A stretch of DNA of 62,552 bases, the filler included, from Atractiella rhizophila (Eukaryota), in NCBI GenBank assembly GCA_021432655.1. It is 19 parts of 19 records of this genome, joined end to end, with 100 filler letters (N's around TTAATTAATTAA, not from the genome) between each part and the next. Parts side by side here need not be neighbours in the genome. Positions count along the whole stretch, not along the records: positions 29,975 to 33,392 come from MU272540.1; 18 more parts are not named here. One strand, 5' to 3'. Made by a program: the position numbers and the translations under genes. Under the pieces are notes generated by a model. The model worked only from the letters and a program-made list of their open reading frames with translations, had not been told where the DNA came from and made no database searches. Shown piece after piece: positions 3,599 through 57,638 of this stretch (its first letter is position 1; each line of letters opens with the position of its first letter).

Positions 3599-4592
3599 TT
3601 CAACTGATCCGCTACCTGGGAACAATCTTCGATGATTGCCTTCACAGCGACTTCAATCTCGCGTTTGGTAGGACCCCAATTAACAGCCGGAGCAATCCCG
3701 ACCCCAGAGACGAGACAGACGACCTGGCTCCCTTGTCCCCATATGCGATTTGCCTCGTCAACCGCTATTGCCGCTGGGTTATTGTTCCCGGTGGCGACAT
3801 ATTCCGTATTGTCGATGACGATAGGACAAAAGAATTGACGTGCAGAGGAAGTCACTCTTGCTGCTTCCAACACCGTACATCGTGCAGCAGAATGAACTGC
3901 ATTCTTCCCTCGTACGTGCGCATCTCTGTTGAAACAACTGTGCTTGATTCGTACCTGGACAGAACAAAGGTTCTACATCTATCCCCAATTGCCGCATCCT
4001 TCATAGGGAGTTGAGAGGACGATATCAACCATGGAGTGTGCCAGGTAATGACTCCTGGCGGACGGCTTCAAGCGTCTTTTTAGAGTATGCGTCGCCTTCA
4101 TTCGAAAGTGGTGCTCCCTCGGAAAATATGTCCTGCACAATCTCTTCGTACTCGCTGATGGATTGTCGAACAGTGATACCCAACTTTCTGAGCATGAGGC
4201 CAATCCACCATACCGTGGAAGTGCCGCAGATGAGATCGAAAACATCGCACGGCCGGACTTCTTCTCCTTCCGGAACGTTGAGAATATTTCCAACTCTCCT
4301 TCGGGAACGTTGAGGATATTTCCAACCTCGAGCATGTAAAGCGTGGAGAAGGCACAGATGCCGCCGTTGTCGATAGCGAGGATTCGGAGTCCTTGTTCGT
4401 TCGTCTTCTTGACATTGTCAGGGAATTTGAAAACTTGACGGTTTGAACTTGGAATGGGCTGGAGGACGAGAAAGGTGTTGGGGTAGCAGATCTAGAGGCA
4501 ACGGGCGATGCAGTACGTGATGAAGAGTGAAATTTTTGAGCCAGAACTGCCGCTTTGACATGGAATGGGTTGAGTTGAGAGTACAGCTGCAA
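3599..4592 (-). pseudogene. Patatin-like domain pseudogene, paralog of the NLR at 29975-31796
   Basis: Across frames it reads KKTNEQGLRILAIDNGG, VRPCDVFDLICGTSTV, EAARVTSSA and NNPAAIAVDEANRIWG, collinear with ORF 30744..31904. Frameshifts include a 32-bp duplication. Runs off the contig end. Confidence 0.85.
4264..4327. repeat. 32-bp tandem duplication causing a frameshift
   Basis: CTCCTTCCGGAACGTTGAGAATATTTCCAACT followed by CTCCTTCGGGAACGTTGAGGATATTTCCAACC. Confidence 0.9.
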
Positions 4593-5166
4593 TACTGAAA
4601 GATTTTGAGCTCCGATGCCTTCATTAGGGCGAGGATCTTCTCACGAATCGGCGCTGAATGTGTGGTCGTCGTCATACAAATTTCAAGGGTCTTCATGGTT
4701 GCCGGGATTTGACGAAGAAGGCTGAGGCGTCCATCTTAGAGCACGAGATGAAATCGATGAGATTGACCCAGAACCCCTTGTTGAACATGACATGCAACTG
4801 AGGAAATGCATCTCAGATCTGGACTAGAGCTACCAGAAGGGAGAGCGGCCAAAGAATACTTGAAACTGCCTGTGAAGAAGAGAAGAAGAAACAAGGAATA
4901 CGGAATACAGTACAGCTACATTTCAATACAAAGATCTGTATGTACGAATGCATGAAAGAAATCTAGACGAACTTGAATGTGAGGATGTGAGGATAATAAA
5001 AGGGAAGGAAGCTTGGGGCGACTTGATCGATTTGTCCACTCGCAAGATGGAGGAACAAATGTTAGGAAAATGAAGGATGGCACTATGAGCCATTCAGCAC
5101 TGAACTCTTGTCTAACGGGTTGAAGAGGGTCCTAAGAAGAAGTAGGGTTGTGGATAGGTTGAAGTT

Positions 5167-26434: not shown

Positions 26435-27707
26435 GCTCATAGTTTAGTAGGAACGGTGAAGGATGGTCTTTACGATGTTGGGGACGAAGAGTTCAACGTC
26501 CGACCCGTTGTCGAGGCTGCAAAGGTTGTTCTCAGCAAACTTAACGATGAGGAGCGTTCCAAATCAAGTTCTCACATCGACTCGCCGGATTGGAGGACAT
26601 GGTCAAACCCCGAATTTTTACTCTCCGATAAGGGAGTGCGGTTGGAATTTCTCGAGGAGGGAAAGAGGGATAGTATACTTGAACTTCTGAAGGCAAGTTT
26701 GAGTGAAGAGGGTTGGGTGAAGGCGAGGGAGGCAATGAGGATCAACGGATTTTTGTCAGTCCTTCCTATGGAATCTTCTTTTTGCGTTGTGGGTGCTGAT
26801 CTTGCATCGTGATATGGCAGGGGACAGCTGGTCAAGGGGGAAAAAGTGATGAACGAGCACTCATACAACTTTGCCCTCTTCGGCGTACCTTCGGAAGACA
26901 GACCATGGGGCTACACATTCTACGGTCACCATCTCTGTCTCAACGCTCTTTTCTACCGAAAACAAATGGTCCTAGCCCCCTGGTTTACAGGTGCAGAACC
27001 GAATGCAATTGATGAAGGGCCATGGAAGGGGATTCAGATTTTGCACAGAGAAGAAGAGCTCGGACTGCAGTTGATGCAAAGCTTGAACACAGATCAGAGA
27101 GAGAAAGCGGTCATCTATAAAGGTCGGTCTGCTGAACGGGGAAGAGATTACAGCTAATTGAAGAAACGAGACAGAATTGAAAGACTCTAAGATGCCGCCG
27201 GGGCGATGTACGCGTTTTCTGTCTCAAGCAAATCATTGCTGATATTTAGGAGCAGGGAACCATGACGATCAACGCCACCTGTGTGGTGCATACCAAGACA
27301 ACCGGATTGTTCCCTACGAAGGCATACCTTACTCTTCCCTTTCCTCAACCCAGCAGGACCTTATCAGATCTATCATCAGCGAATACCTCTTATACCTCCC
27401 GCTGCCCACACGACAGTACCACATATCCCGCTCCTTGGCTTATCCAGACGAAACGTATTTCTCCTGGATTGGGGGTTGCGGTCCGGATGATGCGTTCTAT
27501 TATCGCGTACAGTCCCCGACCATCGTCGTAGAGTTCGACCACCACTCTGGTGTCTTCTTGACTAACACCGAGCCAAAGAAGTTCCATATCCATACCTTGT
27601 TGAGGATGCCAAATGCTGGCGACTATGGGTTGGCGCTGAGGAGGAAGATTGGGGCAAGACAGAAATTGTTTAAGGCATGGGAAGCCGAAGATGTGGGCAA
27701 GGTGTAA
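26435..27707 (+). CDS. DUF3500 domain protein, spliced, 5'-truncated
   Basis: Motifs WRTWSNPE, GHHLCLN, PWFTGAEP, FYYRVQSPTIVVEFDHHSG and HIHTLLRMPNAGDYG; short GT-AG introns. Confidence 0.85.
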
Positions 27708-27875
27708 CAAGTCTAACCGAACGGGAACGTGGGTTTTGTGTGTTTTGTTGGGTATAAATGAATGAATGTACTACCAACGATGAAAGCTGTAACAATGCAA
27801 CCCATTTAAAAATACAATAGCAATACGAGACCTCGAATGCAAATTCCAGAGTTTTGTTCAAGAAGCGCTGTAGAG

Positions 27876-29874
27876 TTAGTCAACAATCACAGTCCGTTTC
27901 CTTCCTTCTTCCACCTCATCTATCTTCGGACTCTCAACCAGTCTTTCCTCAGGCTCGCCAGTATCCCCAATTGCAAACGCCTCTTCCTCTCTCATCAACG
28001 CTTCACCCTCACTTTCTTCGACTCGTCTGCTTTTCAACGGCAGGCGAGCGTACATCCGTTCCTTCTTCTCCCTCCGCTTCGCCACTCTCCACCTCAAAAA
28101 CGCCACGAAACCTCCACCAACAATGAAAATGACAAACAGTAGTGTTAATGTTCTCCGTGGACCATAATACGCCTCGTGAGCCTTGTAATATGTGTCTTGT
28201 TCAACATTTCCTGTTGTCACGCTCTCAGACGAAGCTGGAGCGGCTACAGCAACACTTGAACCGTTCGGTGTGAAGGCGCCAAGAACCACTTCGTCGCCGT
28301 CTCCTATTCGAGAGGGGATGGTGGATGCTGGACCAGCAGATACCAGAGGATCAATGCCAATAAAACGCAGGAGCATGTCTTGCGCGACGGTCGGGAGATC
28401 CTGATAGCACGGATTCAGGTCAGTAAAGCAAAGCAGGAAGGGGAAAGCTTGCCATTGGAACCATATGGCCCGCACCAAAAATGCGCACAAGGCTGGTCGC
28501 GATAAATCAGTAGTCGGACAGAGGTATCGAAGGAGGGAAACAAACGAAAGGCCCCGCTCCTCCCTCCATGTCCCAGCATCCCTGTCTTCGACCCTCCATT
28601 GGGCTTCCTTACTTGCATTTGACCAGCCTGTGGATCCTCCCCATTCAAGTCGATCAACCATATTCCTTATGCCAGCCCAATTACACATCAAATCTTGATC
28701 GCCAACAAACAACAAGATCTTCATGCTCTGTAGCAGAGTTGGGAGGAGCTTGACAGATGGAGGGGAGTGAGGGGACCAGAAATGTTCCGAAACAGTGTTA
28801 TTGCACTGTTCCCACTTCGCAGGTAGCTTGTGATTGGCGTGCAAAGCTTTGGCAACATCTTCGGTATCAAGATATGGCTTGACCCATTTAAGAGCAGGAG
28901 GGAACTCCGTGCCGCATCTTTCGAAAACTTTGACGTTGTAAGCCGACATGCAAAGACCCTGTTTTTTGGTAGCTCCTTCGACAGCTCCTAGCACCGTTTC
29001 GCAGATATCTTCAAGAGCACTCAACGAGTCCCCTTTCGCTTCCATCGCTGCCTGACATCGAAGAACAGTCTTCTGGACGCGCAGCTCTTCGCGGCTTCCA
29101 CTCTTAATTATCCCCATCTCTTGCAGGGAAGAAAGGTATGACGGATATTGTGTGACAGGATCGAACCATCCGTTTCCGATAATAAGACCCATCAGAGGAG
29201 GTTGAACGAGAGTCGACAGTCGAATCGCATCGGCAATATATGGGATGTATTGACCAGCGTAAGACTCCCCTGCGAGGTAGAGATGAGCCTTTTCGTATTC
29301 CGGAAACACATCGTAGAAGTTCCGTAAGAACGTCAGGACTTGATCTGCAGCCTGAGGAAGCTCTCTAATATCGTCGTTGTGATTGACGTAGCTGAACCCG
29401 GTACCTGCCGGTTGATCAATGAAGAGGACATTTGCATACTCGTTCCAAGCTCCCACAGCTTCAGTTAGCTTCCCCGTTTCTGTCACGCGCCAAGGGCCGA
29501 TCTCCATGAACATACCATCCTCGCTTGAGCAGCCTGATGTCATAAATTGATGGACGTGCTGCGGGAATGAATAGGAAACATACCAGGGCCACCTTCAGTA
29601 TATTTCAGTTGCGACATGTGATCAGCAGGGAGGAGACAAACCATTGAACCAAATGATTAGCCGCTCACGTTCCGCGATATGCTTAGCTTTGGCGAGAATG
29701 AAGAAAAGATGAGCATCGTCTATATCTTCGGTGTTGGGAGTCGTGCTGACGGCTGAAAGATGTCCAGCATACAGTTGTGGCGGGTTGGGGATGTCCGGCT
29801 GAAATGGGAGGGAATGAACGTAAAAAGAGGACGAGGGTGGAGCTACATGATTTATCATTCACTGTCAGATGGGA
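27876..29874 (-). CDS. KEX1: Pheromone-processing serine carboxypeptidase Kex1 (S10), spliced, 5'-truncated
   Basis: Motifs WFNGGPGCSS, FIDQPAGTGFS, catalytic GESYAG, GDQDLMCN and GAGHMVP. C-terminal TM helix and acidic cytosolic tail. Confidence 0.9.
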
Positions 29875-29974: not shown

Positions 29975-31796
29975 TAACAGAGTGGAAATACGTTTCGTCG
30001 ACTCTGCATTGGCGCGAAGAACAAACAGCTTGATTGACAAAGTGTGATGATCCAGCTTGGCGAAAATGGTTTTGAGTAGCGGTTCCACACAATCCTCTTT
30101 TCCCGTGTACAGGTGGTTGAACAGCTTCAGCAAGGCTGTATCGCTTAGGCCGCCAATCGACAGCTCTCGAAATTCCACATCTGTGACGTTCACTCGATAG
30201 ATTTGATGTCCACGATGTGTCACGATGAGAATAGAGCCTGAGGCATTGCAGTCTGAAAGAATTGTCTGAAAGAATGACTGCAAGTTGTTTGCATCAGACT
30301 GTGCAGGAGTTTCGAAATTGTCCAAGATAAGGAGACATTTGTGACTCTTGAAATATCGTGCAACAGCACCGAGTTCAGTTTCTCCAGATCGAGGAGCTAT
30401 TGCGAAGACCTGCCTGCAAAGCTCTCTGGTGAGAGAAGAAAAAGTAGAGAAAGCATCGCATCGAGCCCAGAACCGAAAGTCTTCCTCCTCGCCATTCGCA
30501 ATGGTCGTGAATGCGTCTTTGACTTCCTTCGCATGCAAGATTTGTCGAGCCACAGTAGACTTCCCATTGCCAGCGCCACCAATGATCGCAAGATGGTTTT
30601 TTTCTGTGACGATGCACTTGATTGCTGTGCGAACTTCATCATGTCTTCCATAACAATCACCTGTATGAGGCAACGGAAGCTTTCTGGGCACAGCAATGCG
30701 TTGTTTACAGCCTACCAAGAGCAAGTCAGCATGCTGCCATCAATTACGCAACAAGGAGAATACTTTGCACGAGCGACCTCGTCGCGGATAACACTTCATG
30801 ATTCATTGCCTCCATGTATGCCCTCGTGCAGCCCACAACGTCCTCCTTTCGCTCCCATTCCTCCCACTTGAAATCTCCAAATGTATCAACCGAGAAGCGA
30901 TGATAACAATGACCCATCTCACGGTCCTGCATCTGCACCTTCACATACTTTGAAACGTTCATGCAATTCGCGACTATCGCCTTCAGTGCTTCTTGGACGT
31001 CACCCCGAATGTGGCTCAAATTGACAACCGGCGCAACTCCCGAGCCGAGAGACACAAGACAGGCAATCTCACAGCTGGGTCCCCAAATCCGCTTGGCTTC
31101 ATCGACGGCTACCAATGTAGGGTTGTTGGTGCTAAGCTGAACATAGCCGGTGGAATCTTCGTTCATGGGAGGAAAGAACGGAGGACAGGCAGAGGTAGCT
31201 CTTGCAGCTTGCCAGACGAAATATGAGGAAGCGGATCGAGAGGCAGATCCAGCATGATGAATGCCGTAGGTGCGCATCTCCGTGGAAAAGACAATGCTGG
31301 CTTGATAGCTAGAGAGGACGAACGTCTTGCACCTATCCTGTGGAGAAGGGTCCTTCATTGGAAGGGGCTTTGTGGGATCTTCAGGTGGGGGGGTGTGTCG
31401 TTGGATGATGGAAATCAAAGTCTCTTCGAGCTTCGTCGCCGAGAACAAGTACTCCCTACTGGGATCCGAATACTGTTCAACAAAGCCGTCTCGCGCGATC
31501 TCTTCGTACGCTGTAATGCACTGACGAACTGTCATCCCCAGCCTCCCGAGCATAAGTGCGATCCACCCGCCAGTAGAGGTCCCACAGATGAGATCGAAAA
31601 CATCGCAAGGTCGAAGCTCTTCATCTTCCGGTACTTTGAGAAGATGTGCGGCTTGACGCATGATGGGTTCGAGCATGTAGGGAGCTGAGAAAGTGCCAAC
31701 ACCCCCATTGTCGAGAGAAAGGATCCGTAGTCCGAGCGGATTCGTTTTCTTAATATTCTCAGGAATTTTGAACACCTTGACGGAATTCGCAGACAT
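29975..31796 (-). CDS. Fungal NLR: N-terminal patatin-like domain plus STAND (NB-ARC-like) NTPase; intron 30712-30763; 3'-truncated
   Basis: Patatin motifs LRILSLDNGG, FDLICGTSTGG, AARATSA and NNP. A 52-nt intron joins it in frame to Walker A GGAGNGKST, Walker B LLILDNFE, IVTHRG and LDHHTLSI. Confidence 0.88.
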
Positions 31797-33965
31797 GTAG
31801 CGCAAAGTAATGGATAGCAGGATGAATCTCCAATAACAGCGATTGGTTTCGTGGTTACAGGTGAAGGAGGAAGGGACTGCCTGAGGCTGGTACAATCTAG
31901 TCAACTCGATTAGCCTTGCTTCTATACGTTACTTGCATACAACATAAATGAATCCAACTTTGTGCCGTTGTCCTCGAGTTAATATTCAAGAGACCAATCA
32001 ATCGCAACCTTGCCAAATGCAGTTCTTTGCTGCTCTGTTCGTTGCCTCTGTGCCGTCACAAATGGCACTGTACCCTTCTCTGAGCCGCACGTGGAAGCTC
32101 TTTCCGTTGTTGAATGAATTAAGTCTTGTAAATCTTTTTGGAACTCTGCCAGCGTACGTGCGCTTTGGAAGCGACGAGATGAAGAAAGCCAAATCGTGAA
32201 TGCTTCTTCTGTATCATTTAAAGAGCAGATTAAGGACAACGGTGAAGCCATATCGCTTTCATTTCTGCGTTTTTCCTGCTGCGAACCGAGCAAATACTCA
32301 CCTCTGAAAGAGAATGTACGATCTCTCCAGCTCAGATGCAATGGTCGCTGAATGTTGCAATGTCCCAAATAACTCTTTTCCAATTTTTCCAGACTCCTTG
32401 AGCTACCCTTGGACTTTCTCGCTAAAGATTCAACACTCCATACTTTCATCGCCGTTTCTGCGCTCCACAACTCAACTGACCCTAACTCACTGCGACGTGT
32501 GAGGCGTGAACCCTACTTCCTGATTCGCCTCGCCTGCTTCTGCTACGGCGAATCCTATGAGGAACTCCAGTTAGCCAACCCTGCTTCGTCCAGCAGCCAC
32601 TGCTCTTTCCCTTGCTTATATGTTCCTGATTCTTCTCTGATCGAATCGCTGGCACTCCCGATCGCACGGTGTTCCCTCCATCAGGCGATAGGATCGAGAG
32701 TTACTAGCACTCGTGCCTTGAGACGCTTCGGGTTAGATGGGTGAGGCGCTGGTCGATATCATGGGTTGACAAAATATTGGAGTCAAAAGGAGAGGAGCGT
32801 TCGAGGCGGTAAGCATCATGGTTAGCTGCTAGATTTGGATCAGGTCAATTGTTTGGTTGCTTCATCATACTTTGGCAATTGAAAGCATATCCAAATATCA
32901 ATAAGACTAGGGGGACAGAGGCCGATCAGCACAATTTCGTTATATCCTTAGAAGAGTTGAACGCACCTCTTTCTCCGATCGAGTAGCACTTTCTTCAAAG
33001 CAGCCGCCAACTGAACCAACTTCTCCCCCGCTCAGTTCTTTTCAACCCCTCCTATCGATCCCCCTCCACCCATCTTCGAGCACATAACCCCTGACTGTTA
33101 TCCCTCCTCCTGACGCCGATTCTTTAAGGGAAAAGAGTGGGGACTTAGCAGAGTGCGGTTGATTTCGGTAGACCACGCGCAAACGTTGGAGCTTTGATGG
33201 GTGATTTAGTGGAATAGGACTGACGTCCTGGCGGATGATCGTGGACGAAACGCAGGGAGGACATCGATTCTTCTTGAAGCGATGAGAGCAATGGTTCTAG
33301 CGGCAAGTGAGCGTAAACGTGCATCCTGCGATATGAAGCTAGCAAGGTCAATGTAACTCCTGGTATACAGAGATCAAGATGATAGAAGAACCNNNNNNNN
33401 NNNNNNNNNNNNNNNNNNNNNNNNNNNNNNNNNNNNTTAATTAATTAANNNNNNNNNNNNNNNNNNNNNNNNNNNNNNNNNNNNNNNNNNNNTTATTTTC
33501 CTGTGTGGACAATGAAACATGTTGCCAGGCGAACCTGTCCTCACCCAACCACGTCTTTCTGAGGTTGCTGCCATTCACTGGACAGCCGTCAACAAGATCC
33601 CGCAAAGGCTAACCATCCTCCCTCCTCCTCTGCAGTTGTCAAGCAATCCCAACGGACGGAAATCAAGCGAGTCAGACGAAGGACGACATGCCAAAGAACC
33701 CAAGGAGATATTTACACTGCCAGAGTGTGATGCCGCACGAGCTGAAGAACAGAGCACCCGCCGCCTTCCAAGTTTGTCAGAGGTGGTTTTGCGCTTCAAT
33801 TTTGAGAAAATTTGCAGCCAAAAAACGGGTCGAAACTGGTCGACCAGTTTTATCGCCGACCAACGTTGACCAACTCCGACCCCTTGGGCGACGGGTCTGC
33901 TGGCAATTTCGCACGACCAGTTTTGAGACCAGTTTTAACTCAGACAGGCGCGGGACTCTCGGAAG

Positions 33966-37007: not shown

Positions 37008-39546
37008 TGAGGTGAGGGGTTGTCCGAGAATTGGGCGACTTGGCTGACGGCGAATGCAAGGTCCGGTCGTGTCGCTATCATGAGATAGAGGAGGGAGCCG
37101 ACTGCTTCCCTGTACCGACCGTTCCAGGATTTTGGTATGTGTGTTCCTTCGTTTCCGCCTTCCCCTTCATTCGTGGCTGGTTCTAACTTCCCTCCAAGCT
37201 CGAATGGCGTTGCGGCGGCGTTGCAGTTTTTCATTTCGAACTTCTCCAGCAGGCGCTCTGTGTAAGCTTGTTGATCGATGAAGATTCCGTCGTTAGACTG
37301 TGTGATGCGAATGCCTAAGAACTGGTGAGCTCTTCCTTCGTCCTTGAGTTTGTAATGTTTCTGAAGTGCTTCCTTCACAGCTGCTGCTTCCTCATCATCC
37401 TCAGCCATGATAAGGATGTCGTCGACATATAGTCCTACGAGTGCGTACTTTCCTGTTTTCCCATCTCGTCTCGTGTAGATTGTGGCTTCTGACATGCTTT
37501 GTGTGAATCCTAGACTTCTCAATTTTTCATCGGCGTCCCCGTTCCAGACTCGTCCGCTCTGGTGGAGGCCGTAGACGCCTTTCGTCGCTCTTATCACCCA
37601 ATCAGGATGTTCTGGGTCTTCCCAACCAGGAGGTGGTCGAAGATAGACCGGTTTCTCAAGTTTACCATAAAGGTAGGCCGTTGATACATCTACCATGTGT
37701 ACTGGCCACTTATTCTTCGCTGCAATGGATAGGATAAGGCGAAACGAGGGCATGGAGAGGACTGGGGAGAATGTCTCGTCGTAATCAACACCTTTGTGCT
37801 GTGTGTACCCTTGTGCAACTACCCTTGCACGATATCTGACAGTTTCTCCCCCTGGACCTAGTTTTTCCCTCAGCACCCATCGTGACCCAATCACATTCTC
37901 CCCCTTTGGCAGCGGTACCATCTCTCCAACGTCCCTTTCCCTCCACGACTCCCTTTCCTCGTTAAACGCGGCTTGCCATTCGATGGCATTCGGACCAGCA
38001 ACGGCCTCTTCGTATGTCGGAGTGAGGTTGCGAGAGGAGGAGGCGACTGTGATGCGGGCTACTGCGTCAGATAAGGGTGAGTTGCCGAAATACTTTGCTC
38101 TATTGTCTTTCTGAGCTTCCGCAGGTGTGCGCCGTGTGCGCTGTGGGCGTTCTGGAGGCGGCGGCGGTTCTGTTCTCGCTTTCGACGGCCCTTCGGTGAG
38201 TTTCTCCCCCTCATTCGGTTGTTCTCTTGTTACGACTGGAATTGACGTTGTTTCGGGAACAGGAGGGTCCGCTGGTTCGCTCGTTTGGACTTCAATTGGC
38301 TGTAGGAGTGTTGCGGGGTACGTTTCGTCGAAAGCTCCCCCCACAACTTCTTGGGGAGGTCGGACGTGTGTAACGTGGAGCGGATGAGGGCGGCGATTGT
38401 GAGATTGAGGCGTTCGGCAACGCCGTTCTGCTGGGGTGTGTAAGCAGCTGTGTGCTCATGTTTGATGCCGTGCGACTTGAGGTATGTCTTGAACTCATTG
38501 CTTGTATATTCGCCGCCGTTGTCTGATCTTATCGTTTTGATCTTCAGGCCAGTTTCGAGTTCGACCTTCGCTTTGAATTCCTTGAACGCGGAGAATACAT
38601 CAGATTTGTACTTCAGTAAGTAAATCCACTTTCTTCTTGTTGCGTCGTCCGTAAAGCTGAGCCAGTATTCAGCTCCTCCGAACGATTTGACGGGCGCAGG
38701 ACCCCATACGTCGGTGTGAATCAGTTCGAGCTTCTCCTTTGCGCGTTCGGTAGGGCCGGAGGGGAATGGGAGCTTTCGTTGCTGGCCAAGGAGGCATCCA
38801 GCGCACGGTGAGTGGTGATCCTCCTCTCCTATCTCTAGCGCTCTAACCATTTCCTTTTCTTGTAGAAGCTTGAGGCTCCCGCTTCCGATGTGACCTAAAC
38901 GGCAGTGCCAGACGTGCGAGGAGGCAGGCTTTGTGGCAGCGGTAAGGTTTGTGCTTGCACCGTCGTTTGTAGTGATTATTGATGCATCTAGCCTTCGCAG
39001 TCCACCCTCTGCCACAATCTCAGCCACCACCGTACCATCTCCCTTCACCACATTTCCTCGCCTGTGTGCTGAGAACACGACGTCGAAGCCTCGAGCATTC
39101 AACTTGTCGGTGGAGAGGAGAGCACAATCGATTTCGGGGTCATAGAGAGTGTCAGTAATTTCAATTTCTCTTTCTATTCCTTTGATCTTTGTTAATGCTT
39201 TGACAGTGCCGATGCCAATTGCTTGCGTGACGACGCCGTGGGAGGAGTGGATGCGACGTGTGTGGGGCTTGAGTGAGGAGAACCAATTTGCGAAGGGCAC
39301 GATGTGGTCCGTGGCAGCGGAATCGACATAGATCCCATCACGGTGTGTCCCTTCCCCTGTAACCGTGTGGAAAGCCTCTGAGATCTTGGCTTCTCCAGGC
39401 TTCTCTCCTCCTTCTCTCTTCTTCTTGCGGCAATCCCGCTCCCAATGTCCCTCGATGCCACAGTAGTGGCACTTTCCCCGCTTCTTCTCGCTCTTTGACT
39501 TCACTCCGCCACTCCCACCGTTCGCTTTGGTGAAGTGCTTCCCTCC
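37008..39546 (-). pseudogene. Copia pol (zinc knuckle, protease, integrase, RT) with a deletion-frameshift near 38335
   Basis: ORFs 38230..39504 and 36956..38344; integrase LWGE is joined directly to FDET. Confidence 0.88.
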
Positions 39547-40242
39547 TCACCATGTTTTCGTTACTAACGCTTCTGAGGTAGTCTTTGACTCAGGATTCCT
39601 ACGGTCCGCTTCGAGCAGGAGATGGGAGGCGACGTATGAGGACGTGAAGTCGGAGGTGGCAACGGTGTTGAAGGAGGAGACGACTTCGATCCAGGATTGT
39701 GGGAGTGAGATAAGCAGTAGCATGGCGATATCATCATCGTCAGTCTTATCTCCCATCGCTTTCAACTCCTGTCCCATGGTTCTGATTTGGTTTATGTGCT
39801 CCTGCATAGATTCACCTTCAACGTAACGCGCTGTGTAAAGCTTCTGGCGGAGCAGTACACGCGCTTGTCGGTCCTGAGTCTGGTAGAGCTCCTTGAGCTT
39901 GTCCCAGACCTCTTTCGGTTTCTCAACTTCGATATCCCGGATGTCAGTAAGTATGTGGTCCTTGCATGCTTCAATGACGATTGAGTAGGCTAGGTATGCT
40001 CGCTTCGTCCAATCCCTCTGCAACGCTTCGATTGTGTCGACCCTCGCGACATTCTCCGGTTTCGCAGCCTCCGCTCCCTCGAGACTCGCTGGCTTGGGAT
40101 CCGTTCCTGCAACGATCCCCCAGCAGTTCCTTCCGAGGAGCTTAGCCTGGACTCGAAAGTACCAGGTATGGTAATTCTCCCGTCCTTCGAGTTTCGCGAT
40201 AGTCGATGCAGCAATGAACGATGTGTCATTACCTTCAGACAT
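39547..40242 (-). CDS. Copia gag (UBN2-type)
   Basis: LEGRENYHTW, VWDKLKELY and LLISLPQSW motifs. Confidence 0.85.
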   Translation of the reverse strand: MSEGNDTSFIAASTIAKLEGRENYHTWYFRVQAKLLGRNCWGIVAGTDPKPASLEGAEAAKPENVARVDTIEALQRDWTKRAYLAYSIVIEACKDHILTDIRDIEVEKPKEVWDKLKELYQTQDRQARVLLRQKLYTARYVEGESMQEHINQIRTMGQELKAMGDKTDDDDIAMLLLISLPQSWIEVVSSFNTVATSDFTSSYVASHLLLEADRRNPESKTTSEALVTKTW

Positions 40243-40288
40243 CCTGGGCTCGTGAAGCGACGGAGAACTTGGCTAGATATGAACGTAG

Positions 40289-54365: not shown

Positions 54366-56562
54366 GAGACAGGGAAGGGAGCAACAACCTTGCATTTGGG
54401 GATGTTGAGCTTCATTCCATTCCGATCAGACCAGTCGCTAACCAAATCGAGCTGATCCTGGCCTTCCTCGACGGTTTCGGGAATGCAGGCAATATCATCG
54501 GCAAAGGTGGGGGCAGAGACAAGGGAGGACACATTAGAGGGGAGAGCAGGAGGGGAGTGTGAGGGTGTTGGCTGAAAAGGAAAGGCATAGAGCGGGGGAG
54601 GAGCGGGTTGAGAAGACAGACAAGCGGGTCGATGAAGAGCTCGAAGAGCATGGGGATGATCGGACCGCCCTGTGGGTACCCGCGGTGAATGGCGATGGGA
54701 GGCTGGCGCTGGCCGTTCACGATGATCGTTGCCGACGCATTGTGTGTGCAGAGCTGCCAAACGAGCTCGCGGATAGCTGAAGGAGCACCGCAGGACTTCA
54801 AGTTAGCGTCGGTAATGTCGTGACGGACTGACGGTAAGGCGCGTTCAAAGTCCAGGAAAATCGCTATGGGTCGCTGACGGGTTCTCGCGGCTGAGTCGAC
54901 AATCAAGAGGTTAGATAGGCAGGAGAACCCTCTATTGAACCCAGCTTGGGCCATATGAGTGAAATTCCAGCTTAAGGGATCCTCGCCAGAAATGGTGGGA
55001 AGGAAAAGGATTTCCCAAAGACGCCGAAACATAACAAAGAGGGACGGGGGGCGGCTATCAGCAGCGGTTGGAGGACGACCCTTGCCTTTTGGGATGAAGG
55101 GCATGACCTGTTCACCCCATCGTGAAGGAGTACGACGAGTAGCAGCAACCAGGCGAAATAGGGAGAAGAGGTGGTCAGCGAGAGAAAAGAACCCGGTGGG
55201 AGCATTCTTCTTCTCCCCATCAGAAGAGAAGCATGAGAGAGTGGCGAGTAGGCGAGCATGGACACCGTCAATGCCGGGAGACTTGCCCTTGGGATAGCGA
55301 GCGAGAGCGCTTCTAATCGCTGAAGAGGTGAAGAGGTGGCCTAGGCCCCAACACTGTTCATCGAAGATAGGACCATCGAAGTGCGGGCGATCAGGAGGAG
55401 GCAGATTGCTTTCGTAAATGTCGCTCCAGAGCTGAACCGCTTCATCAGCAGCAGTGAGACCGCTTAGAGCCCCAGAAGGAGACGGGACAAGGAGGCGTGG
55501 GCTACTGCGTCCGGATTTCTTAAAGAGGCGGATAGCGGCTAAAGGAGAGCGAGAGCGGGAGATTTCGTCGAGAGCAAAGTCGGGGTTCAGCCGAACAGCT
55601 GAAGCGTTGTATTCGCCCAGAACCGAACGAGCAACTACGTTGACAGCGTTGAAGACCGCCGAGTCTGCATCATCCACTATAGCCTGCAATTTGTCACCTT
55701 CTCCAATACTTGCCGCCGAACGAGCCAAGGTCCAGCTTTGTTGAAGAAGAATTTTAATGTCCCGAGACAGTTTCGCGTATGCGTAGAGAAGGACCTCGGA
55801 TGCAAAGGGGATATCCATATTAGAGATGCAGGGGCGGGAAAGTCCAGGGTCCGTGTGGAGAGGGCTAAGATGGAGAGAAAGCTGCGATAGAAGGAGGGGA
55901 TGGTCGGAAGAGATAGACAGGCAGGACTGATGGATCAACGATAGGGAGTGGACGGGGGTAGAAGGAGAGGAGAAGATGTGATCAAGAGGATCGGGGAAAG
56001 CTGCGAGGATGGAGTGAGGAGGTACTACATATAGGTGACGAATTGCCATCCAAGTAACCAGAGAAGAGACTCGATCAGGAGGAGACACGATTGAGCCGTG
56101 TACAGCTGCTCCAAGTCGAACGTTGAAATCACCAGTGAGTAAATCGACAGGAGGGAGTTCGGCAAGGAGTTGCAGGCAACGAGCATTTGAGTAGGATGGA
56201 GGGAGGTAGACAAAGGCAAGGCGCTTTCCAGCAAGCTTCACCCAGACCCAATTAACACCCGCAGAAACACCCTCCGAGTCGACACCAGACTTCAGAGAAC
56301 GGTCAATGAACTGAACTACCCCTCCATTCTCATGACCAATCTCCCTTCGTTCTGCCACCTCCGGTCGCTTTGAGCCCACCAAAAAGTAAGGAGAGGAACA
56401 GTAAGCTGAGCGGGACTGAATGAACCAGTCCTCGGTGACTGCTAGCAGGCCACAGAAGGAGGAAGAGAACCACTGCTGAGCAACGGCCCACTTCTCCGAT
56501 TGTAGACCACGCATGTTCATTACTGCGAGAGGGACTTGAAGAGACGGAGAGCTGGAACTCAT
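54366..56562 (-). CDS. LINE ORF2: APE endonuclease plus reverse transcriptase; frameshift just before FADD
   Basis: APE motifs NMRGL, TEDW, VYLPP, GDFN, LDHIF and SDH. RT motifs KSPGIDG, QAGF, FLDFERA and GYPQGG. FADD and LNIPKC lie in another frame (54314..54760). Confidence 0.9.
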
Positions 56563-57638
56563 TGAGGGGAGTCGGCAGCCAAGCGTGCATCGACATCCAT
56601 CTCGTTGTCAACCGGATTGTCGATCAGAGTCTCGCTCCCGTCGAGACGGAGATGAGCGAAGTATTCCTTTGTGGCCATACTGGCTGTGGAGTCCTTCTGC
56701 GTAATCCTTCGAAGACGGGATAACCAATCTTTCCGAATGCGATCAACGACGTCCTGGGGAGCTTCGGGGTTATGAGGCTTGCTAGGATCATAGTTTGAGA
56801 CGACAATGACCTTGCTGGACGTCATAATATCGAGGAAAGTCTGGACATAGCTCTGATCCATTAGGATTTCGAGAGTGTCCCTGCCAACCCAAGAAAGGTG
56901 AGCGATGTTGACAAGCCTAATCTGAAGGGCTCGGAATGTCTCTCTGATCTTCCTGTATGCCGACCATCTGAGCTTGACATAAACAGGTTGAAGTTTATCC
57001 GCAGAAAGTGCAGGGGGAGAGGATTCCGAGGGAGGAGGTCTGCGAGGGCCAGGGACAGGGCGCAACTCGTTGAGAAGTGATTGAGCCCGCTCGCGGTCGT
57101 GGACTGGGATCTTGTCGAGGTGGGCTTGCGCGATGGCGGCGTAAGTAGGCTTTTTAGGAGGGGCTGGTGGGGAAGCAGCAGTAGAGGCTGGTTGGAGGGG
57201 AGGGGTGTGAGCAGCCGCAGCTGTTAGCACGTTGTTTCTCTCCATCAGCTGCTTGTGAGACGACTTCATTTCCTCGACATCCTTCGTAAGGGATTTCACA
57301 TGTGACAGAAGCTCGGAGAACAGATCCCATTGTCTATCAGCATCTAGTGAAGCAAAATGCTCTCTGCCCAACTCCAGAAGCTCCAACTCCTCTCCACTCG
57401 TCACCGCCTTCCTCTTCTGGGTTTTGGCCTTCTTTCGGGGGGACGCACCAAGCAGGGATGGAAGTCCATCACCCTCTTCCACCCGAATCCTTACCTGGAT
57501 GCCACCATCCGCCACATTAGCAGTACCCAATCCAGCTCCCTCTGTCATTTCCAGCTCGCCTACGCCACCGCCACCGTTGTTTTGTGTGAGAGATGAGGAC
57601 ATCGACGGGGCGGAGGGAGGCCCTCCATTCGTCGACAT
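56559..57638 (-). CDS. LINE ORF1 protein (coiled coil, no zinc knuckle)
   Basis: Intact 359-aa ORF directly upstream of ORF2, with a coiled coil, a PTYAAIA motif and an RRM-like central region. Confidence 0.8.
   Translation of the reverse strand: MSTNGGPPSAPSMSSSLTQNNGGGGVGELEMTEGAGLGTANVADGGIQVRIRVEEGDGLPSLLGASPRKKAKTQKRKAVTSGEELELLELGREHFASLDADRQWDLFSELLSHVKSLTKDVEEMKSSHKQLMERNNVLTAAAAHTPPLQPASTAASPPAPPKKPTYAAIAQAHLDKIPVHDRERAQSLLNELRPVPGPRRPPPSESSPPALSADKLQPVYVKLRWSAYRKIRETFRALQIRLVNIAHLSWVGRDTLEILMDQSYVQTFLDIMTSSKVIVVSNYDPSKPHNPEAPQDVVDRIRKDWLSRLRRITQKDSTASMATKEYFAHLRLDGSETLIDNPVDNEMDVDARLAADSPQ

Follow-up and report, generated by a model that had tools for sequence, protein, structure and literature searches.

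A genome-specific family of patatin-type receptor heads in Atractiella rhizophila that lacks the catalytic Asp-Gly and keeps the nucleophile serine

The window analysed here, a whole stretch of 62,552 nucleotides (filler included) from assembly GCA_021432655.1 of the fungus Atractiella rhizophila, a root endophyte of the Pucciniomycotina, carries on the minus strand of one unplaced 3.4-kb contig (29975-33392) a gene that joins a patatin-fold head to a STAND nucleoside triphosphatase, the nucleotide-binding oligomerization domain (NOD); the catalytic Asp-Gly of patatins is missing from this head. The locus covers the 5′ two-thirds of a NOD-like receptor (NLR) gene that is expressed and correctly spliced (Table 1). 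Its two exons, with a canonical intron between them (donor GTATTC, a branch-like CTGAC, acceptor TAG), hold 588 codons that stay open until the contig ends, so that the intact reading frame of the preliminary description stands. The first-exon protein, P0001, matches the Patatin family PF01734 at E 5.6e-13 (50 bits, cut-off 27.7), the match ending at profile position 177 of 191, just short of the DG motif. The second-exon protein, P0002, passes the NACHT threshold (34.4 bits, cut-off 26.7) and falls just below that of NB-ARC (22.5 bits, cut-off 23.5). Thus, the fusion of a patatin domain through one intron to a nucleoside triphosphatase is borne out, but the label “NB-ARC-like” is only approximate, since the NB-ARC score is below threshold. 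P0002 is 47% identical over 243 residues to the NOD of P0181, a full-length paralog of 1,235 amino acids in which the NOD continues into 5 TPR_12 stretches, as had been expected of the C-terminal repeats. By analogy with P0181, the TPR repeats of our gene would lie beyond the contig end; no such continuation was found on the other contigs of the window. Residues 1128-1171 of P0181, after its TPR repeats, also give a BAG-domain match (E 3.5e-9).

The gene model draws on four sequencing runs, X1 to X4, that were compared with 29976-33392 and yielded 239 single-letter differences, 40 of them shown, and 9 listed indels. A 322-letter X3 contig joins 30710 to 30763 with 52 bases skipped and one mismatch (150 letters on the shorter side of the joint, depth 233.8), and an X3 contig of 322 letters joins 31896 to 32302 with 405 bases skipped and 0 mismatches; joints at both introns are absent from the DNA-type runs X1 and X2. 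Because its contigs are intron-less, unlike those of X1 and X2, we read X3 as transcript-derived. An X3 contig also extends 326 letters past 29976. From X4, a root metatranscriptome, only 6 contigs were obtained at 90-99% likeness, 5 of them at 90-95%, and nothing is drawn from them on habitat or expression. At the 5′ end, an extension of the protein through the upstream exon was considered and rejected, because the spliced model has a stop codon in frame 204 nucleotides before the ATG at 31796. The short contigs of X1 and X2 pile up on 29976-33392 in large numbers (486 and 255, respectively, at 90-100% likeness), about a third each in the bands of at least 99%, 95-99%, and 90-95%. With so many contigs, many near-copies or alleles must exist, and these likely explain why the assembly breaks at this contig.

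Three motifs make up the patatin active site, namely the Gly-rich loop, GXSXG, and DGA/G, whose Asp is the proton acceptor (PMC12871566). From the perspective of membership in the Patatin/PNPLA family (PF01734, PS51635), the fold, the profile match, and GXSXG are all present in P0001, the last as GTSTG at residues 72-76, intact as originally described. The other two motifs depart from the family in the manner first read from the DNA. The Gly-rich or oxyanion loop reads DNGGVGT at residues 29-35 and does not match DGGGx(R/K)G, and the DGG site reads GYVQLSTNNP at residues 217-226, so that the DG(A/G) motif with its proton-acceptor Asp is absent. In the place of that Asp stands Gln220, and the spacing from Val to NNP is 4 residues versus the canonical 6. 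The loss is placed identically by different alignments: phmmer alignments to iPLA2-beta and CapV put their gap or insertion exactly at the DGG of those proteins, and a MAFFT alignment to canonical relatives opens a 2-column gap at the DG motif. Within residues 200-230 of P0001, no D-G-G/A motif occurs.

Is this the accident of one copy? The A. rhizophila proteins used for comparison are paralogs from the window’s own genome; the S10 carboxypeptidase frame on a neighboring contig (26435-29874) matches an A. rhizophila protein in every letter except for one intron left unspliced. Word-index searches returned 42 longer relatives and 88 of similar length, an exhaustive profile-free search gave 4,217 proteins at E ≤ 0.001 and 38 at E ≤ 1e-30, and the named matches above about 40% identity are all from A. 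rhizophila. In a maximum-likelihood tree of 52 domain sequences, hand-picked from 268 aligned homologs, the gene falls in a clade that forms one side of a branch with 18 rows (Shimodaira-Hasegawa approximate likelihood-ratio test, SH-aLRT, 98) and is nested in an Atractiella-only group of 22 rows (SH-aLRT 98). All 17 clade rows that cover the DG site lack the Asp and have the same 2-residue gap, as in YV-AIGNNNP; in P0007 more of the site is deleted. The paralogs were the obvious check on whether this was a single decaying copy, and with 17 of 17 sharing the absence it is not; by the same count, loss of Asp-Gly is a conserved family trait. At the aligned Asp position, which is Asp in 100% of the canonical set, the clade has Ala (11 rows), Leu (3), Gln, Thr, and Ser. 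In the Gly-rich loop, Asn30 is found in 17 of 17 rows that cover it and Arg34 in only 3 (P0053-P0055). Before the first strand, the clade also has a strongly conserved basic motif of the pattern VKxFxVPENxKKxN (K16 and N19 in 100% of rows, K17 in 94%) that is missing from canonical relatives. The other members of the Atractiella-only group are P0050/P0273 and P0134, in which GxSxG and the DGG Asp are kept, and the degenerate P0136; P0050 (378 residues) and P0134 (323 residues) are stand-alone patatins without any other Pfam domain, and the Gly-rich loop of P0134 reads DSGG.

The gene is therefore one of at least 17 paralogs that arose by an expansion specific to this genome and form a single clade, in whose ancestor the Asp-Gly was deleted, the first loop Gly became Asn, and the loop Arg was lost, while the Ser elbow and nearly all fold residues were kept. 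This is most simply explained by a single loss of six bases in that ancestor before the expansion. The expansion is itself unusual, given that patatin heads of fungal NLRs average only 1.7 per species (Dyrka 2014, PMC4986451). Outside the genome, a metagenome scan with the clade alignment gave 80 loci with best segment identities of 23-51% and no clade member, and the matches in the ESM Atlas were all generic clusters of fungal patatins (scores 0.95-0.96).

The conservation of the remainder of the head was assessed against a reference set of 141 homologs that have all three canonical motifs. Fifty sites are at least 90% conserved in that set, and the clade keeps 40 of them. The 10 that it does not keep (G30, R34, G35, Y97, I194, W195, A203, A204, the Asp aligned to residue 220, and T252) mostly belong to active-site motifs: the Gly-rich loop, the C.IW.AARATSAAP block, the DG site, and the GTG turn. 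Site by site, the entropy of the clade correlates with that of the canonical set (Spearman 0.58, n = 311 sites). Thus, a catalytic residue has been lost across the clade (17/17) while the fold core is conserved (40/50), which is one mark of a pseudoenzyme. The letter differences, which come from alleles or nearly identical copies present in the DNA runs, were also inspected: 31 of the 40 differences shown are coding, and 15 of these 31 are synonymous as against 23% expected (binomial p 0.002). Within exon 1, 12 of 22 are synonymous (p 0.0015), as are all 5 of the variants listed at residues 30-34. Partial as the sample is, these figures point to selection on an altered protein and not to decay.

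The clade was also placed in a census of the 268 aligned homologs, 222 of which could be scored at both dyad sites, a sample that is biased to relatives of P0001 and in which some rows are uncurated gene calls. Ser and Asp are both kept in 162 of the 222, Ser only in 17 (12 clade members, P0136, and four others), Asp only in 17, and neither in 26, so that in 60 of these 222 close homologs from fungi the dyad is incomplete or absent. Loss of the dyad among fungal patatin domains is clearly recurrent; as in the clade, it is seen in Termitomyces, Mycena, Flagelloscypha, Puccinia sorghi, Rhizoctonia, Orbiliomycetes, and others, and several of the defective homologs in other fungi are of NLR length with TPR or ankyrin repeats. 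What distinguishes the Atractiella clade is the residue that was given up. Outside it, the Ser is mostly the one lost (GxGxG or GxNxG), whether or not the Asp has gone as well, and 43 of 48 dyad-defective homologs have replaced it, 39 of them with Gly. Plant pPLAIII patatins likewise carry GxGxG. No other group with several members in the census keeps the Ser while having the Asp-Gly deleted. If the frequent loss of dyad residues among fungal homologs holds more widely, fungal NLR heads that have been called “phospholipase” by domain name alone would need to be re-read.

The predicted structure agrees with an ordered patatin fold. An AlphaFold2 (AF2) model of P0001 from a 92-row alignment has a predicted local distance difference test score (pLDDT) of 90.2 and a predicted template modelling score of 0.91, with pLDDT of 91-94 near the deletion (93 for block 211-220, 91 for 221-230). 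Superposed with VIA-align, it matches patatin-17 (1oxw/4pkb) with Z 33.4 and a root-mean-square deviation of 2.5 Å over 298 residues, iPLA2-beta with Z 31.6, and CapV/CapE with Z 28-31; the top Foldseek matches are CapV, CapE, iPLA2-beta, and patatin-17, at template modelling scores of 0.61-0.74. The model also bears on the suggestion that the Asp of the EDS tripeptide, a few residues upstream of the altered site, might serve as an alternative acid. The canonical sister P0050 was folded as well (pLDDT 85.9), and in the secondary-structure strings its IEV-DN-TLYVD, GGM turn, and GTNNP correspond to MNE-DS-TGYV and then QLSTNNP in the window protein. The counterpart of Asp214 is accordingly the hairpin-turn Asp228 (of Asp228-Asn229) of P0050, which exists alongside the catalytic Asp234. 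Asp214 is thus an ancestral turn residue and no substitute acid, so that the suggestion is not supported; it would lie a strand-length from the active site and far from Ser74. A Ser-Lys partnership with Lys16 or Lys17 of the basic motif was set aside on inference only, as these residues precede the N-terminal end of strand 1, opposite the end that leads into the loop.

With the proton acceptor gone and no conserved acid or His in its place, the canonical Ser-Asp cycle should be unavailable to these heads, and we judge, with somewhat better than even confidence, that canonical hydrolysis has been lost. Since the dyad is lost and yet the head appears to be under purifying selection, the account we favor, by a modest degree, is that this is a conserved NLR head that works as a non-hydrolytic binding module rather than as a phospholipase of the PLP-1 type. 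The head would have been retained under purifying selection and used without hydrolysis, as a lipid- or membrane-binding module or a partner-recruiting signalling module, and oligomerization of the NOD would deploy it. Several observations weigh against this account. The gene is cut by the contig end. X3 has no RNA label or library type on record, and it is from its intron-less contigs that we take it to be transcript-derived. The count of synonymous and non-synonymous differences comes from 40 shown of 239, chosen by support, with alleles and paralogs mixed. The spliced model also has an upstream ATG at -248, out of frame, from which a frame of 170 codons runs over the true start; it is a possible translational brake. 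Decayed members of the family exist, namely P0136 and a second copy in the window (3601-4730). Finally, every one of the 18 clade rows retains Ser74, the whole elbow (FDLICGTSTGGW), the AARATS block, and NNP. As 43 of the 48 defective homologs elsewhere replaced the Ser that this clade keeps, there is a hint that it still does something, and a less obvious base near Ser74 may exist.

This last point is the core of the most substantial competing explanation, namely that Ser74 is still the nucleophile of an acyl-hydrolase or acyl-transferase, activated by another residue, by a partner, or by substrate assistance, and that the altered loop (Asn30, no Arg34) reflects a changed substrate with the chemistry retained. 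The near-invariance of elbow, AARATS, and NNP counts in its favor, as does the rarity of Ser retention among the dyad-defective homologs outside the clade; moreover, residues 30-34 vary only synonymously among the near-identical copies, and the clade has gained conserved polar residues (for example, H296, R155, E173, and K286) that could be candidates from the alignment. However, deletion of the Asp, loss of the loop Arg, and replacement of the loop Gly came together, 14 of 17 rows have Ala or Leu where the Asp would stand, the flanks of the active centre (A203/A204, T252) are relaxed, and the sole nearby Asp (214) is the ancestral turn residue, and we therefore hold retained chemistry to be unlikely, at something like one chance in a handful. 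Much less probable is that our copy is a dying, truncated relic in a repeat-rich and poorly assembled region, its motif changes being decay. It does lie on a 3.4-kb unplaced contig amid retrotransposon fragments, its protein is missing from the annotated set (best match 56-60% identity), the other window copy is frameshifted, and an out-of-frame ATG precedes the start; but 588 codons are open over the two exons and the intron between these is canonical, both introns are removed in transcript-like contigs that differ from this copy by 0-1 letters, and synonymous variants are in excess. The supposed defects, moreover, are clade-wide and older than the radiation of the clade, and the truncation coincides with the contig end, past which the X3 contig goes on for 326 letters. 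An assembly error or an unrecognized small intron that hides a normal DGG can be dismissed almost outright: nothing was found in its favor, none of the 9 indels listed over runs X1-X4 affects exon 1, the patatin frame is free of joints in all four runs, residues 200-230 lack any D-G-G/A, and the same gap is common to 16 independently annotated paralog proteins.

A more speculative possibility, and a distinctly improbable one in our estimate, is that the heads are non-catalytic nucleators. Oligomerization of the NOD would cluster the pseudo-patatin heads, and on these the stand-alone patatins with an intact dyad (P0050, P0273, and P0134) would assemble in the manner of CapV/CapE. The idea fits in that these patatins are the closest relatives of the clade in the same genome and that CapV and CapE have been solved as filaments. 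Were it true, an expanded NLR family would do the sensing and a small number of active lipases the killing, much as in NWD2/HET-S or in plant sensor/helper NLRs but with lipases. In plant sensor/helper NLR pairs, executor motifs can be degenerate, and by analogy only, a killing module may degenerate after duplication while the receptor is still useful.

The non-hydrolytic binding module that we favor has to be set beside the known systems. PLP-1 of Neurospora crassa, HET-Z1 of Podospora anserina, and VIC2 of Cryphonectria parasitica are patatin-NB-ARC-TPR allorecognition NLRs, and the window gene shares with them the patatin head and the P-loop NOD; the C-terminal TPR of the PLP-1 type is seen here in the paralog P0181, the window contig stopping inside the NOD. 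A further feature of the PLP-1 type is cell death that requires phospholipase catalysis and a polymorphic partner, SEC-9. Enzymatic activity of the PLP-1 head is stated to be essential for death (review PMC12881547 and preprint 10.1101/2022.04.03.486892). In contrast to PLP-1, the window head has its catalytic Asp-Gly deleted and its loop Arg lost, and unlike the PLP-1 type its NOD passes the NACHT cut-off with NB-ARC just under; the family also has at least 17 paralogs versus the average of 1.7 per species for patatin NLRs (PMC4986451). The protein sequence argues against PLP-1-like canonical catalysis in the window head. With patatin-17 and iPLA2-beta/PNPLA9, it has in common the fold, GXSXG, and the NNP cap, but unlike them it has no DGA/G and a non-canonical Gly-rich loop. 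The best Foldseek matches, CapV and CapE (template modelling scores 0.72-0.73), are cyclic-nucleotide-activated patatin-like lipases of the cyclic-oligonucleotide-based antiphage signalling system (CBASS), solved as dimers and filaments. They are immune effectors switched on by assembly, as the window head would be, and differ from it in that they keep the Ser-Asp dyad and are free-standing.

In kind, then, the gene is a known one, a fungal patatin NLR; what would be new is a conserved and expanded head that keeps the Ser with the Asp-Gly deleted. Dyad-less patatin heads in fungal NLRs were unreported in the literature searched, the text of PMC9815663 included; supplements lay outside this search, and relevant entries may stand in the NLR tables of Dyrka 2014 and Wojciechowski 2022. 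PLP-1 is the one studied patatin NLR, in which death is reported to need head activity, and here a root endophyte has at least 17 expressed or conserved paralogs without the Asp. Either patatin heads can signal or kill without a Ser-Asp dyad, or these receptors rely on other executors.

Table 1. Coordinates of the receptor gene, of the altered motifs in its head, and of features on other contigs of the window
Feature	Position	Strand	Basis or remark
Upstream non-coding exon	32302..32457	-	X3 contig; extends at least to 32457
5′ leader intron	31897..32301	-	405 nucleotides, GT..AG, donor GTGAGT
Exon 1 coding part, whole patatin-fold head (P0001)	30764..31796	-	Open frame, 344 codons + 1 base, ATG at 31796
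N-terminal motif VKVFKIPENIKKTN peculiar to the clade, residues 6-19, ahead of strand 1	31740..31781	-	Clade conservation
Gly-rich/oxyanion loop DNGGVGT, residues 29-35	31692..31712	-	Canonical DGGGxRG
Nucleophile elbow GTSTG, residues 72-76, Ser74	31569..31583	-	Ser in 18/18 clade rows
EDS, Glu213-Asp214-Ser215, beta-hairpin turn	31152..31160	-	Between strands 211-213 and 216-219
GYVQLSTNNP, residues 217-226, Asp-Gly deleted	31119..31148	-	Alignments
Intron between patatin and NOD exons	30712..30763	-	52 nucleotides, GT..AG, phase 1, spliced in X3 contig
Exon 2, STAND NTPase (NOD), P0002	29976..30711	-	244 open codons, cut by contig end
Walker A/P-loop GGAGNGKS	30557..30580	-	Read from sequence
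Walker B-like LILDN	30317..30331	-	Read from sequence
Decayed second patatin-family copy, P0003-like	3601-4730	-	tblastn pieces, 64-81% identity
S10 serine carboxypeptidase (KEX1-like), one unspliced intron	27879-29594	-	Contig 26435-29874
Copia-type gag-integrase	38233-40272	-	Frame on another contig
Reverse-transcriptase frame	54415-56607	-	Frame on another contig

The window as a whole is a pseudo-molecule of 19 contigs that run approximately from longest to shortest, most of them about 3.4-3.5 kb long and one only 1.3 kb, with linkers of the form N44-TTAATTAATTAA-N44 regularly spaced over 3499-61235. Because it is a chain of joined contigs, genes on either side of a linker are not genomic neighbors. 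On the contig of the receptor gene itself, two small GT..AG introns seen in X3 contigs (32842-32903 and 33153-33209) are on the plus strand and mark a divergently transcribed gene at 32636-33392, on the upstream side of the NLR gene, whose own longest frame matches no Pfam family. In the decayed copy at 3601-4730, pieces that are consecutive in the P0003 query lie in three different frames by tblastn, GTSTVWW stands in place of GTSTGGW, and a short VGNILNVPEGE stretch is duplicated; like the receptor gene, this copy runs off its contig. The other contigs carry copia-type gag, integrase, and reverse-transcriptase fragments, as is typical of unplaced, repeat-rich scraps.

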